Below, in pieces: positions 2,746 to 19,338 of a DNA stretch of 64,000 nucleotides. The DNA comes from Escherichia coli (GTDB lineage: Bacteria > Pseudomonadota > Gammaproteobacteria > Enterobacterales > Enterobacteriaceae), in assembly GCF_003334355.1 (NCBI RefSeq), contig NZ_QOWP01000005.1; one strand, given 5' to 3'. The translations under genes and the position numbers were made by a program. Within the stretch, counting starts at the first letter, position 1; each line of letters opens with the position of its first letter. Under the pieces are notes generated by a model that worked only from the letters and a program-made list of their open reading frames with translations, ran no database searches and was not told the DNA's origin.

Positions 2746-3968
2746 GATTGTGCCTCCGCTTCGGTTTTAGTCGCGGTCGCGTCTTCTTTTGGCACCAGCA
2801 TCATCGCCACGCCAATCGCCGTTACGCCGCCGATCAACTTGCCGACAATCATCGGGAAGATCATGGCGTTCATGTTGGCAGCGGCGAAGCCTAAGTGGTC
2901 GCCCAGGGCGAAAGCAGCGGAAACGGCGAAGGCGCAGTTGATGACTTTGCCGCGGGTATCCATCTGCTTCATCATGCCGAACATCGGGATGTTGTTGGCA
3001 AGCGTTGCCACCATGCCGGCTGCCGCGATGTTGTTCATATTCAGTACTTTACCGACGCTCATCAGCGGTTTTTCAAACCAGCGAGTCAGCAGCAGCACCA
3101 TCGGATACGCCCCTAACAGAACGCAGGAGATAGAACCGATAACTTCAATGGCGCGCATCACCTCACCGGGTTTATCGCCAGGGGCCATAAAGATAGGATC
3201 CAGACCGGGGATCAGTTCCCAGCCAAGCAGGAATTTCACTACCGCAGCGGCAAGACCGAGGGTGATCAATGCAACGAGGAATTTGGCGAAGATCTGGAAG
3301 CCGTTGATCATTTTTTCCGGGATGAATTTCAGCCCCAGCGCCACCAGAATCGCAACAATGATCACCGGGATCATGTTCATCAGGATCAGGGCGAAAGTGA
3401 ATTCCACCGGCTGGCCGTTGATCTGCACACCGGAGTACATAGCAACCAGACCACCAGCGATACAACCAATCGGAATGGTCACAATGCCCGCCAGCACGCC
3501 GAGCGCCAGATAACGACGGTCAGAAGGTTCGATAATGCCGAGCGCCACCGGAATGGAAAACACAATCGTTGGCCCCATCATCGACCCGAGAATTAACCCA
3601 GAGTATAGCCACGCGGCTACGTCGCCGCCCGCCAGCTCTTTGGCGAGGAAGAAGCCGCCCATATCGCACGCCAGCAGTGTTCCGGCGAACATCGATGGGT
3701 TAGCGCCGAGCATTTCGTAAACCGGAATAATTACCGGCCCGAGAACGTGAGCCAGTACCGGTGCCAGCGCGGTCATACCGACCATCGCCAGGCCCAGTGC
3801 GCCCATTGCCATAAAGCCTTCTTCGAACTGACCGCCTGATCCTTCGATACTTTTACCGAACTTACCGAGGAAACGAGCAGAACCGCCGAACTGCGACAGG
3901 ATCCTGTCTACGGCAGCTATCAGCATAAAGAACATCATGATGTACATGATGATTTCGTTAATTCCCAT
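2742..3968 (-). CDS. eutH: ethanolamine permease/facilitator EutH
   Basis: 408-aa highly hydrophobic ORF; overlaps eutA start by 4 nt; recognised as EutH. Confidence 0.93.
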   Translation of the reverse strand: MGINEIIMYIMMFFMLIAAVDRILSQFGGSARFLGKFGKSIEGSGGQFEEGFMAMGALGLAMVGMTALAPVLAHVLGPVIIPVYEMLGANPSMFAGTLLACDMGGFFLAKELAGGDVAAWLYSGLILGSMMGPTIVFSIPVALGIIEPSDRRYLALGVLAGIVTIPIGCIAGGLVAMYSGVQINGQPVEFTFALILMNMIPVIIVAILVALGLKFIPEKMINGFQIFAKFLVALITLGLAAAVVKFLLGWELIPGLDPIFMAPGDKPGEVMRAIEVIGSISCVLLGAYPMVLLLTRWFEKPLMSVGKVLNMNNIAAAGMVATLANNIPMFGMMKQMDTRGKVINCAFAVSAAFALGDHLGFAAANMNAMIFPMIVGKLIGGVTAIGVAMMLVPKEDATATKTEAEAQS

Positions 3969-3983
3969 CGCCTTTACTCCCTG

Positions 3984-4184
<201 letters not shown>

Positions 4185-15495: not shown

Positions 15496-17499
15496 ATGTC
15501 CCGAAAAGACCTTGCCAATGCGATTCGCGCACTCAGTATGGATGCGGTACAAAAAGCCAACTCTGGTCATCCCGGCGCGCCGATGGGCATGGCTGATATT
15601 GCCGAAGTGCTGTGGAACGATTTTCTTAAACATAACCCTACCGACCCAACCTGGTATGATCGCGACCGCTTTATTCTTTCCAACGGTCACGCGTCGATGC
15701 TGCTCTACAGTTTGCTACATCTGACCGGTTACGACCTGCCGCTGGAAGAACTGAAGAACTTCCGTCAGTTGCATTCGAAAACCCCAGGCCACCCGGAGAT
15801 TGGCTATACGCCAGGCGTTGAAACCACCACCGGCCCGCTTGGACAAGGTTTGGCGAACGCCGTCGGGCTGGCGATAGCAGAGCGTACACTGGCGGCGCAG
15901 TTTAACCAGCCAGACCATGAGATCGTCGATCACTTCACCTATGTGTTTATGGGCGACGGCTGCCTGATGGAAGGTATTTCCCACGAAGTCTGTTCGCTGG
16001 CAGGCACGCTGGGACTGGGCAAGCTGATTGGTTTTTACGATCACAACGGTATTTCCATCGACGGTGAAACAGAAGGCTGGTTTACCGACGATACGGCAAA
16101 ACGTTTTGAAGCCTATCACTGGCATGTGATCCATGAAATCGACGGTCACGATCCGCAGGCGGTGAAGGAAGCGATCCTTGAAGCGCAAAGCGTGAAAGAT
16201 AAGCCGTCGCTGATTATCTGCCGTACGGTGATTGGCTTTGGTTCGCCGAATAAAGCAGGTAAGGAAGAGGCGCACGGCGCACCACTGGGGGAAGAAGAAG
16301 TGGCGCTGGCACGGCAAAAACTGGGCTGGCACCATCCGCCATTTGAGATCCCTAAAGAGATTTATCACGCCTGGGATGCCCGTGAAAAAGGCGAAAAAGC
16401 GCAGCAGAGCTGGAATGAGAAGTTTGCCGCCTATAAAAAGGCTCATCCGCAACTGGCAGAAGAGTTTACCCGACGGATGAGCGGTGGTTTACCGAAGGAC
16501 TGGGAGAAAACGACTCAGAAATATATCAATGAGTTACAGGCAAATCCGGCGAAAATCGCTACCCGTAAGGCTTCGCAAAATACGCTTAACGCTTACGGGC
16601 CGATGCTGCCTGAGTTGCTCGGCGGTTCGGCGGATCTGGCTCCCAGCAACCTGACCATCTGGAAAGGTTCTGTTTCGCTGAAGGAAGATCCAGCGGGCAA
16701 CTACATTCACTACGGGGTGCGTGAATTTGGCATGACCGCTATCGCCAACGGCATCGCGCACCACGGCGGCTTTGTGCCGTATACCGCGACGTTCCTGATG
16801 TTTGTTGAATACGCCCGTAACGCCGCGCGGATGGCGGCACTGATGAAAGCGCGGCAGATTATGGTTTATACCCACGACTCAATTGGCCTGGGCGAAGATG
16901 GTCCGACGCACCAGGCTGTTGAGCAACTGGCCAGCCTGCGCTTAACGCCAAATTTCAGCACCTGGCGACCGTGCGATCAGGTGGAAGCGGCGGTGGGCTG
17001 GAAGCTGGCGGTTGAGCGCCACAACGGACCGACGGCACTGATCCTCTCAAGGCAGAATCTGGCCCAGGTGGAACGTACGCCGGATCAGGTTAAAGAGATT
17101 GCTCGTGGCGGTTATGTGCTGAAAGACAGCGGCGGTAAGCCAGATATTATTCTGATTGCCACCGGTTCAGAGATGGAAATTACCCTGCAAGCGGCAGAAA
17201 AATTAGCAGGAGAAGGTCGCAATGTACGCGTAGTTTCCCTGCCCTCGACCGATATTTTCGACGCCCAGGATGAGGAATATCGGGAGTCGGTGTTGCCTTC
17301 TAACGTTGCGGCTCGCGTGGCGGTGGAAGCAGGTATTGCCGATTACTGGTACAAGTATGTTGGTCTGAAAGGGGCAATTGTCGGGATGACGGGTTACGGG
17401 GAATCTGCTCCGGCGGATAAGCTGTTCCCGTTCTTTGGCTTTACCGCCGAGAATATTGTGGCAAAAGCGCATAAGGTGCTGGGAGTGAAAGGTGCCTGA
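15496..17499 (+). CDS. tktB: transketolase 2
   Basis: ORF track 15433..17499 trimmed to [13 protein letters not shown] (667 aa); transketolase family. Confidence 0.93.
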
Positions 17500-17505
17500 T
17501 GGTGA

Positions 17506-17582
17506 TTGCCGGATGCTGATTGCCGGATGCGACGCTGACGCGTCTTATCCGGCCTACAGCGTCTTATCCGGCCTACATGTCC
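17506..17582. repeat. REP elements (GCCGGATGCGACGCTGACGCGTCTTATCCGGCCTACA type) between tktB and ypfG
   Basis: REP consensus read directly; internal direct repetition of CGTCTTATCCGGCCTACA. Confidence 0.85.
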
Positions 17583-17593
17583 CGCCATTTTGT

Positions 17594-18637
17594 TTAACGG
17601 GTGATCCACAACGTGGGCCAGGCGTCTGGCCCATGCCAGTTATCGCAGGTGGGTTCTGCGGCGTAACGCACCAGGCGAAAACGCTGACCGTCAAAGCGCC
17701 AGCGCGCCTGAATGCCACAATCGCTTAATCCGCGCCCTTTCGCTAAGGTCACCAGTTCACGCGATTTCTCATCAAATGTTGCGTTCATCAGTTCCAGTTC
17801 ATTCGTCTCCTGACCGTTGTTGAACGGCAAACGCAACCGAACCGGGCGCGAAGCTAGTGGCTTTTTACGCGACACAATCCATGCCAAATCAATGGTGTTA
17901 TAGGCCCCTGCCTCACAGCTAATCATCATCAGCGCTTTATCATCAGTCAGCGCAGTGACATTCACCTCACGACGCAATGGATCAAGCGAGCAGCGCAGAC
18001 CATTCATCCGCCAGTTTCCATAATCCAGCAAATCGTTGCGTTCTTCGAGTGAGAGTGGCGTCGGCGTTGGGTTAACCACCGCGCCCCCTTTCAGCGCAGG
18101 CGCGGGCGGTACGCTGAGCGGCGGTTCGTCCCCTTTCTTGATCCACGCGGTTTCACTGCCAACGCGCTTTTGCTGAGCATCAATAAACAACAACGCTGCT
18201 TTTAAGCCACTCAGAGAAATGGTCTGATCGCCATCGCGTAAGGTGATTGCCTTCCCTTCCTGAATCATCTGCAAAAACGCGGTGATGGTTGCCGTATCAT
18301 CGGTTACTAATAACCATGGTGAAATCCGCCACTTGTCACCACTTAACGCCAACGGCTCGCCATCTAACAGCAGCCGTGGCGCTATCTCCCCTTCTGACGC
18401 CTCCGGCGACTTCAATCCGCCGCGCTCAATACGTAAAACGGCATCGGTATGCGCCCCGGCGCTGCGGCTCAGGGTCATCACCAGTCCATTATGATCGCCC
18501 GTATTACGCGCCACGCAGAAATTTTGGTTATTACAGGTGACCTGCCAGTCGGAAAACGCCCGTTGCGCTGGTGCCGCCCACACCAAAGACGTCGGCAACA
18601 AAGCGAAAAAAAAGAGAAGGAAAATGCGATAGCGCAT
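17594..18637 (-). CDS. ypfG: DUF1176 family periplasmic protein YpfG (function unknown)
   Basis: 347-aa ORF with N-terminal signal-peptide-like segment MRYRIFLLFFFALLPTSLVWAAP. Confidence 0.85.
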   Translation of the reverse strand: MRYRIFLLFFFALLPTSLVWAAPAQRAFSDWQVTCNNQNFCVARNTGDHNGLVMTLSRSAGAHTDAVLRIERGGLKSPEASEGEIAPRLLLDGEPLALSGDKWRISPWLLVTDDTATITAFLQMIQEGKAITLRDGDQTISLSGLKAALLFIDAQQKRVGSETAWIKKGDEPPLSVPPAPALKGGAVVNPTPTPLSLEERNDLLDYGNWRMNGLRCSLDPLRREVNVTALTDDKALMMISCEAGAYNTIDLAWIVSRKKPLASRPVRLRLPFNNGQETNELELMNATFDEKSRELVTLAKGRGLSDCGIQARWRFDGQRFRLVRYAAEPTCDNWHGPDAWPTLWITR

Positions 18638-18762
18638 GGACGGTACGACCCCAGAAGTTCAAACAAACAGCACAAGTCGTATCTTCGTTGCGCAGGTAGC
18701 GCGGCTCAATCGGATTTGTCGGATTGAGCCAATAATAAACAACGAAATATTATTGTTATTTT

Positions 18763-19338
18763 TCAGTCCATTAAATGTGACGTTTGCAAATAGTTAAGCA
18801 ATAACACCGTCTTACCGTCACGTATCTCGCCGGTTTTGATCATCTCCAGCGCCTGGCTGAACGGCAGCTCGAGCACTTCAATATCTTCATCTTCGACACC
18901 GCCACCGGCGTTAGCGCGCTGATTGTCACTGTATTCGGCGATAAAAAAGTGGATTAGCTCAGTCACACCGCCTGGCGACATATACAGTTCAAATAATTTG
19001 CGCACTTCACCCACTTCATAGCCCGTCTCTTCAATCGCTTCTTTGCGAATACACACTTCCGGTTCGTCGTTATCCAGCAGCCCGGCGCAGCTTTCAATCA
19101 GCTGCCCGCTTTTATTGCCATTAACCCAGGTAGCGACACGGAACTGACGAATCAGAACCACGGTCTTTTTCTTCGTGTTGTACAGGAGGATCGTCGCACC
19201 ATTGCCGCGATCGTACACTTCACGTTTATGGCGGATAACTTCGCCGTCTTTGCGCGTGAGATCGTAAGTAATGTTGTGCAGGGTGAAATAGTTATCGGAG
19301 AGAATTTTGTCTTTAATGAGGGTGATTTGTTGCGTCAT
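18763..19338 (-). CDS. nudK: GDP-mannose pyrophosphatase NudK (Nudix hydrolase)
   Basis: ORF track trimmed to [13 protein letters not shown] (191 aa); Nudix box region present. Confidence 0.9.

Follow-up and report, generated by a model that had tools for sequence, protein, structure and literature searches.

The product of ypfG is read here, at odds a little better than even (a probability of roughly 0.55), as a Sec-exported protein of the Rcs envelope-stress regulon that acts in the periplasm as a non-catalytic binder and is built of two domains and three disulfides. The gene is among the most strongly induced of the Rcs envelope-stress genes, belongs to the E. coli core and is found in many Proteobacteria, Brucella, Acinetobacter, Burkholderia and Stenotrophomonas among them. 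Catalogs already list both the gene and its family, and published tables already contain its stress induction; what is added here is a conserved operator and promoter, a disulfide pattern, a domain model and a fold-level link to IalB, together with the removal of two hypotheses, one concerning Fur and one concerning NudK. Overall, ypfG is an ordinary, incompletely understood stress gene, for which an improved annotation is offered and no new kind of system is claimed.

The ypfG gene and the DUF1176 family

The window analyzed is the whole 64-kb stretch of DNA (64,000 nucleotides), in which ypfG and its flanks are arranged as follows:

15496–17499, plus strand: tktB (tkt, transketolase), convergent with ypfG
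17507–17577, no strand assigned: REP/BIME element, between the stop codons of the convergent genes tktB and ypfG
17594–18637, minus strand: ypfG coding sequence, DUF1176 protein, 347 codons plus stop (ORF list, Pfam PF06674 and RefSeq annotation)
18763–19338, minus strand: nudK (GDP-mannose pyrophosphatase), upstream of ypfG on the same strand, across a 125-nt gap

A first-pass annotation, made from the sequence, had named the gene ypfG, described its 347-residue ORF as a DUF1176 protein and placed it between tktB and nudK; the ORF list and RefSeq bear out name, length and position, and Pfam bears out the family (E = 3.7e-105). No strand had been given; the ORF lies on the minus strand, starts with ATG and agrees with the RefSeq ypfG CDS. 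The gene ypfG is a core gene: every complete E. coli genome in RefSeq (5426 of 5426) carries its annotation, and the 1.5 kb around it is 90–100% identical to all of them. The annotated order in these genomes is tkt, ypfG, nudK, with ypfG entered as "DUF1176 domain-containing protein", the product name that RefSeq/PGAP still uses.

DUF1176 is the sole Pfam match of YpfG, spanning residues 25–347 and covering model positions 1–322 of 322, that is, end to end. Searches of NCBIfam (which holds no model for YpfG), PDB chain sequences and PADLOC returned no match, including no anti-phage defense match in PADLOC, and no functional study of ypfG, DUF1176, b2466 or STM2476 was found in the full-text literature. 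These results agree with the earlier description of a protein without a recognizable catalytic motif, and the curated databases assign it no function.

Relatives were collected by a HMMER search of 1.84 billion cluster representatives, which yielded 1488 clusters at E values of 0.001 or below, and 99 full-length members with 25–80% identity to YpfG were aligned. Four residues (C35, C41, G308 and F320) are invariant across the 99 sequences; C216, C241, C307 and C331 are conserved at 96% or more, and R302, G303, D306, C307 and G308 at 94% or more. The conserved motifs are D-W-x-V-x-C-(D/N)-N-x3-C-x-A, S-L-x-G-x2-A-x2-L-x2-D-x2-Q-x-R, G-A-Y and K-G-R-G-x-x-D-C-G. YpfG belongs to the family by its HMM match, its cysteine pairs and the last of these motifs; it shares the six cysteines, the motifs and the N-terminal export signal of PF06674 proteins and, as a typical member, differs from them in nothing.

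A scan of one genome per species, comprising 70 DUF1176 loci, located the family in Xanthomonadales (Pseudoxanthomonas, Luteimonas, Lysobacter and Stenotrophomonas), Burkholderiales (Burkholderia, Duganella and Pigmentiphaga), Alphaproteobacteria (Sphingomonas, Erythrobacter, Caulobacter, Faunimonas and Acetobacteraceae), Acinetobacter and many Enterobacterales, with partial matches to the C-terminal domain in two cyanobacteria and one Solidesulfovibrio. A small number of copies lie on plasmids. Because the family extends far beyond Rcs-bearing bacteria (into Xanthomonadales, Burkholderiales, Sphingomonadales, Caulobacter, Acinetobacter and Brucella), control by Rcs would be a lineage-specific overlay with little bearing on the ancestral biochemical role. 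Domain fusions were considered as a functional clue and set aside as too rare to generalize: there is a single C-terminal fusion of DUF1176 to LprI/DUF1311 (P0241; E = 8.6e-5), and one homologue carries an N-terminal DUF2127 membrane domain.

Expression and promoter of ypfG

Published transcriptomes contain ypfG among genes that respond to envelope damage. Treatment of cells with a LolCDE inhibitor raised its transcript 37.7- and 44.2-fold, placing it in the table of induced genes between ypeC and yaiY and among ycfJ, bdm, the wca/wza colanic-acid genes and spy, and above mliC (24- to 37-fold) and ivy (23- to 37-fold) (PMC5105897). Both ertapenem and meropenem raised the level of a DUF1176 transcript, as well as of ivy and a ymgD-family gene (bioRxiv 10.1101/2019.12.16.878389), and in complement-active serum ypfG was one of few induced genes, along with ycfJ and ygaC (PMC4145685). 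Likewise, ypfG and ypeC belong to a 13-gene response to RP4 conjugation that is common to E. coli and Klebsiella recipients. In an rcsB-disrupted O157:H7 isolate, ypfG expression was 4.6-fold lower in one strain comparison, in which ycfJ and ypeC fell 25- and 24-fold, respectively (PMC5343319). The inducing conditions all damage the envelope, and the co-induced genes form a well-known Rcs set; the dependence on rcsB comes from the one O157 comparison, while the other transcriptomes are correlative. On these literature values (4.6-fold lower without rcsB, 38- to 44-fold higher with the LolCDE inhibitor), ypfG has the expression pattern of an Rcs-regulon gene and appears to be turned on when Rcs signals envelope damage.

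The 125-nt gap between nudK and ypfG was compared across related genomes, and the following elements were delineated:

18710–18723, minus strand: putative RcsB-box-like operator TCCGACAAATCCGA, unchanged in 14 enterobacterial loci, with one mismatch to the consensus
18704–18709, minus strand: -35-like hexamer TTGAGC, directly abutting the box, with TTGAG unchanged in 14 of 14 aligned promoters
18681–18686, minus strand: weak -10-like hexamer GAAGAT, after a 17-nt spacer

The 14 loci represent E. coli, Salmonella, two Enterobacter, two Citrobacter, Mangrovibacter, Erwinia, Phytobacter, Kosakonia, Pseudescherichia, Escherichia sp. ESNIH1, an uncultured Enterobacteriaceae genome and a distant orthologue with only 34% identity at the protein level. 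Across this range of about a dozen genera, the 19-nt sequence TCCGA-N4-TC(C/T)(G/T)A-TTGAG is unchanged, even at loci where the protein is only 34–46% identical, and its flanks diverge. In 13 of these promoters, nAnGAT follows after an identical 17-nt spacer; the fourteenth, that of UBA5654, has AGAGTT. The motif is absent from the divergent Pectobacterium and Rouxiella loci and from the upstream regions of DUF1176 genes at more than 40 loci outside Enterobacterales.

The structural consensus reported for the RcsB homodimer box is TN(G/A)GAN4TC(T/C)NA (PMC7913699), from which TCCGACAAATCCGA departs by a single mismatch, a C at position 3 where G or A is expected, the consensus being of low information content. 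The bare consensus has no exact match in the 64-kb window (1.8 expected by chance), and the 19-mer of box and TTGAG occurs there once (0.01 expected). Because the consensus carries so little information, the case for an RcsB site is made not by the match itself but by the phylogenetic footprint, the placement upstream of a weak -35 element and the expression data. Taken together, these three lines suggest that ypfG is very probably a direct, activator-dependent target of RcsB. Transcription is predicted to start near position 18674, from a weak sigma70-type promoter of the gene's own (TTGAGC, 17 nt, GAAGAT), and phosphorylated RcsB would bind at about -49 to -36 and recruit RNA polymerase to this poor promoter. 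Since a weak promoter has a putative RcsB-type operator directly upstream of its -35 element, ypfG would be near-silent until phosphorylated RcsB accumulates after envelope damage. The triggers would be those reported above, namely lipoprotein mis-sorting, beta-lactam treatment, complement and conjugative contact, and induction by tens of fold would be shared with ivy, mliC, ymgD, ypeC, ycfJ and the colanic-acid genes.

Regulation by Fur, which would make ypfG an iron-related gene, was weighed against control by RcsB. A Fur box upstream of ypfG has been predicted with a weight matrix (PMC4145685), a 2026 Klebsiella preprint (10.64898/2026.04.25.720692) assigns YpfG to an SbmA network and counts it with proteins tied to siderophore biosynthesis and regulation, and in A. 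baumannii sbmA is the second gene along from the DUF1176 gene, after a DUF4850 gene. However, the best Fur match upstream of ypfG, at 11 of 19 positions, is the ordinary best of any 160-nt stretch in the window, and the candidate site is kept neither in position nor in sequence in other genera. Moreover, in the serum study (PMC4145685) it was complement that induced ypfG, and iron-poor inactivated serum did not; ycfJ and ygaC, which complement induced with it, are among the strongest responders in the Rcs-activating LolCDE-inhibitor data (PMC5105897). The predicted box, being at background level and not conserved, was rejected, and membership of ypfG in a Fur regulon is judged highly improbable.

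Export signal, probable disulfides and domain model

Three regions of the protein were delineated from the sequence, the family alignment and the structure model:

18575–18637, minus strand: Sec-type signal peptide, residues 1–21 (MRYRIFLLFFFALLPTSLVWA), without a lipobox (sequence and hydropathy scan)
18122–18574, minus strand: N-terminal domain, approximately residues 22–172, with an IalB-like fold; conserved D30-W31, C35-x-N37, C41 and S141-L-x-G144...D153..Q156-x-R158
17597–18052, minus strand: C-terminal domain, approximately residues 196–347, a long helix followed by a beta-meander; conserved C216/C241, G244-A-Y246, K300-G-R-G-x-x-D306-C307-G308 and C331

The obvious signal peptide seen in the first-pass annotation is supported by the sequence and by a Kyte-Doolittle scan. 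The N-terminus, MRYRIFLLFFFALLPTSLVWA followed by APAQ, has a short basic n-region, a core whose 12-residue hydropathy means reach 2.5, and V-W-A ahead of the likely cleavage site. An equivalent hydrophobic N-terminus is present in 91 of the 99 homologues, and in 13 of the 99 (about one-eighth) a lipobox-like motif takes the place of a plain signal peptide. YpfG would thus be exported by Sec and, once processed, be a soluble protein of about 326 residues in the periplasm.

All six conserved cysteines are present in 94 of the 99 homologues, and 92 of the mature sequences contain exactly six. Losses occur only pairwise: C216 is missing together with C241 in four sequences and C307 together with C331 in one, and C35 and C41 are never lost. 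Because the six are so conserved and disappear only in pairs, the alignment points to three disulfides (C35–C41, C216–C241 and C307–C331), a pattern that fits a protein of the oxidizing periplasm.

Structure prediction and a fold search, which had been suggested earlier as a check, gave a two-domain model. The AlphaFold2 model, built from the 99-sequence alignment, has a mean pLDDT of 93.3 and a pTM of 0.89, and consists of an N-terminal domain of beta strands with two helices, a short proline-rich linker, a helix at residues 197–211 and a beta-meander at residues 225–346. In the cell, the two domains would be tightly packed and held by the three disulfides. Two other readings of the architecture were discarded: an internal duplication, since hhalign gave a probability of 0.7% for the N-terminal against the C-terminal domain, and a beta-barrel, listed for YpfG as "possible beta-barrel" in a published table note (PMC5105897) and unsupported by the model, which is that of a soluble two-domain alpha/beta protein.

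A Foldseek search of the model against the PDB returned nothing significant, and phmmer with YpfG and profile searches with the alignments of the two domains found nothing meaningful among PDB sequences. In the predicted structure, the N-terminal domain shares its three-dimensional fold with IalB of Bartonella henselae (PDB 3DTD), with which identity is only 17%. Pfam did not match PF06776 (IalB) to YpfG or to 36 isolated N-terminal domains at E values of 0.1 or below, the N-terminal profile did not retrieve 3dtd from PDB sequences at E values of 10 or below, and tblastn of the domain against plasmids recovered only DUF1176 genes and no IalB. In contrast to IalB, a single-domain secreted protein of about 20 kDa, YpfG has 347 residues and an additional, unrelated C-terminal domain of about 150 residues. 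The link indicated by the model is therefore one of fold only, YpfG lying outside the IalB family in both sequence and architecture. Weaker structural echoes were seen of Tni2 (6B12), X-Tfi XAC2610 (4QTQ) and PliI-Ah (3OD9), small immunity or inhibitor proteins of the periplasm whose beta fold is a partial propeller.

Since the work on IalB concerns its part in erythrocyte invasion by an alphaproteobacterial pathogen (PMC6299047), the predicted fold of the N-terminal domain could suggest that YpfG is itself a surface-exposed or released factor for adhesion or invasion. The Brucella DUF1176 protein, detected in brucellin extracts and proposed as an antigen, and the induction of ypfG by complement (PMC4145685) would be in agreement with such a role in host interaction. 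However, all E. coli genomes carry ypfG, those of commensals as well as those of pathogens, the family occurs in bacteria of soil and plants (among them Pseudoxanthomonas, Luteimonas, Sphingomonas and Duganella), and the protein sequence bears no hint of translocation across the outer membrane, so that a host-interaction factor is a very unlikely description of YpfG.

Candidate functions and genomic neighborhood

A non-catalytic binding role for YpfG is favored because no match other than DUF1176 was found in Pfam, NCBIfam, PADLOC or PDB sequences. In that role YpfG would bind its target stoichiometrically in the periplasm, so as to shield or sequester either a component of the envelope or an enzyme that attacks it. 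In the main alternative, which is regarded as unlikely, YpfG would act enzymatically on one of the envelope polymers (peptidoglycan, LPS, colanic acid or a lipoprotein) through an active site missed by current profiles; several invariant polar residues (D153, Q156, R158, Y246, R302 and D306) could equally form such a site.

For the preferred reading of YpfG as a binder, the most attractive specific guess is a protective one, because ypfG keeps company with ivy and mliC, the model weakly recalls periplasmic immunity and inhibitor proteins, and one homologue is fused to an LprI domain. DUF1176 proteins might then be a hitherto unrecognized family of stoichiometric periplasmic inhibitors of, or shields against, peptidoglycan-cleaving enzymes, including host lysozymes, the cell's own lytic transglycosylases and competitors' effectors, deployed in enterobacteria by Rcs together with Ivy and MliC; such a specific assignment is at present speculative, and its chances are rather poor. 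Ivy and MliC are Rcs-induced periplasmic inhibitors of lysozyme and lytic transglycosylases, signal-peptide proteins without enzymatic activity of their own, and are co-induced with ypfG by LolCDE inhibition and carbapenems, with fold changes that are similar or lower. Their likeness to YpfG is a functional analogy only: YpfG has two domains and three times their size, and it does not belong to the Ivy, MliC/PliC, PliG or PliI families by sequence or fold. If YpfG is a protective binder or inhibitor, bacteria would have one more known tool against attack on the cell wall, and IalB-type proteins a first mechanistic handle; the IalB "invasion" proteins of Bartonella and Brucella would then be envelope-protection factors of the same superfamily. 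With its conserved operator and promoter, a confident two-domain, three-disulfide model and the link to the IalB fold, YpfG is an easy target for a focused experiment.

The neighborhood of ypfG raised the further possibility that YpfG partners NudK in the manner of the Bartonella ialA–ialB locus, for example by tying GDP-mannose or colanic-acid metabolism to the periplasm. The gene nudK lies directly upstream on the same strand, an adjacency found in 19 loci, with a spacing of 15 nt in one of them (L004); ialB likewise adjoins a NUDIX gene, ialA (PMC6299047), and at one Acinetobacter bouvetii locus an unrelated NUDIX gene precedes DUF1176. However, the adjacency is confined to Enterobacteriaceae-type loci, where shared ancestry can account for it, and ypfG has a conserved promoter of its own within the 125-nt gap. 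NudK, moreover, belongs to a different NUDIX subfamily from IalA/RppH. Apart from A. bouvetii, no NUDIX neighbor was found at about 45 other loci, and none in A. baumannii; one chance NUDIX neighbor is expected among approximately 100 flanking genes. The pairing is thus lineage-restricted, and the A. bouvetii case is not kept in A. baumannii, suggesting synteny in the one instance and coincidence in the other; functional coupling to NudK was set aside as having very little probability.

Clustering of all flanking ORFs at the 70 DUF1176 loci revealed no neighbor common across orders. At Enterobacteriaceae-type loci, and only there, ypfG is accompanied by nudK, tktB, talA, maeB and aegA, and the tight same-strand neighbors of DUF1176 genes elsewhere are mutually unrelated (a transporter, an M48-like protease, a GGDEF protein, PhaZ, an oligoribonuclease and an esterase).

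The gene ypfG was said to be flanked by a REP element, and the 94-nt gap on its downstream side, between tktB (ending at 17499) and ypfG (17594), contains such a structure. Two tandem copies of GCGTCTTATCCGGCCTACA with inverted-repeat arms occupy the gap, forming an imperfect palindrome with a GCCGGATG...CTTATCCGGCCTAC core; CTTATCCGGCCTAC occurs twice in the gap and, in dispersed copies, eight times in the 64-kb window as a whole, against 0.01 expected, and Rfam gives a partial, sub-threshold match to the REP-derived naRNA4 at 17512–17553.

Sequence elements at the start of ypfG

The ypfG transcript leader ends in a short segment that is conserved across genera, and a second element of interest lies inside the coding sequence:

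18638-18655, minus strand: about 18 nt of 5′ UTR preceding the ypfG start codon (CTGGGGTCGTACCGTCC-ATG)
18530-18547, minus strand: sigma54-like site TGGCAGGTCACCTGTAAT within the ypfG coding sequence

In the promoter alignment, the leader segment takes the cross-genus form GGGG-YTG-YRCCGTYC, in which the Shine-Dalgarno-like GGGG is separated from the ATG by an unusually long 12-13 nt. This conserved end may represent a translational control element or the target of an sRNA. Farther upstream, a comparison of upstream regions revealed a second RcsB-box-like sequence (TCAGATAAATCTAT / AGATAAATCTA) in several genera, as seen in L002 (near 3900-3915), L029 (Phytobacter) and L036 (Pseudescherichia), directly upstream of the conserved RcsB-box-like sequence that precedes the ypfG -35-like hexamer, thus forming a tandem pair; in the same comparison, this second sequence was absent upstream of the conserved box in E. 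coli and Salmonella.

The Salmonella counterpart of the intragenic site, TGGCAGGTCACCTGCAAT, has been reported as a sigma54-binding site (PMC3844500). Compared to that sequence, the E. coli site carries T in place of C in the -12 'GC' element, a substitution that may leave it inactive.

The ypfG-tktB gap and REP elements

In Salmonella, ypfG is separated from tktB by STM2475, a 76-aa gene (L001, 5173-5403), one transcription start of which falls within ypfG in strain D23580 (PMC6333337). By comparison, the corresponding gap in E. coli (17500-17593) contains only a REP element. Elsewhere in the window, further REP-like sequences were observed:

4020-4159: four REP-like cores (CTTATCCGCCCTAC / CTTATCCAGCCTAC)

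These are arranged as two inverted pairs, 100 nt apart, and look like a separate BIME cluster.

Neighbors and mobility of DUF1176 genes

In Acinetobacter bouvetii, a small MutT/RppH-like NUDIX gene (L063, 3358-3762) lies immediately upstream of the DUF1176 gene, a pairing that echoes both nudK-ypfG and the ialA-ialB pair of Bartonella. In A. baumannii (L081), the neighbors are instead sbmA and a DUF4850 gene. A Klebsiella preprint (10.64898/2026.04.25.720692) cites a database association of YpfG with SbmA, which may stem from this proximity of sbmA. A PF00144 (beta-lactamase / PBP4B-like) gene is found near ypfG in two enterobacterial contexts, namely, convergent with ypfG and overlapping it by 4 nt (L006, 7095-8234), and just past nudK in Salmonella (L001, 1793-3091), an association that could reflect synteny only. 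The family is also occasionally mobile, since a DUF1176 gene on the conjugative plasmid pB13-200B of Pseudomonas syringae pv. tomato (L082, 3453-4478) adjoins an IS66 accessory gene.

Domain fusions

Fusions of DUF1176 to other domains are rare. The homologue P0241 (L005, 6001-7698) combines DUF1176 with LprI/DUF1311 (PF07007; E 8.6e-5) and an unassigned C-terminal beta region, and its gene adjoins a divergent cluster encoding an ECF sigma factor and a Metal_resist (Spy/ZraP-like) protein. In P0214, DUF1176 is joined to an N-terminal DUF2127 membrane domain.
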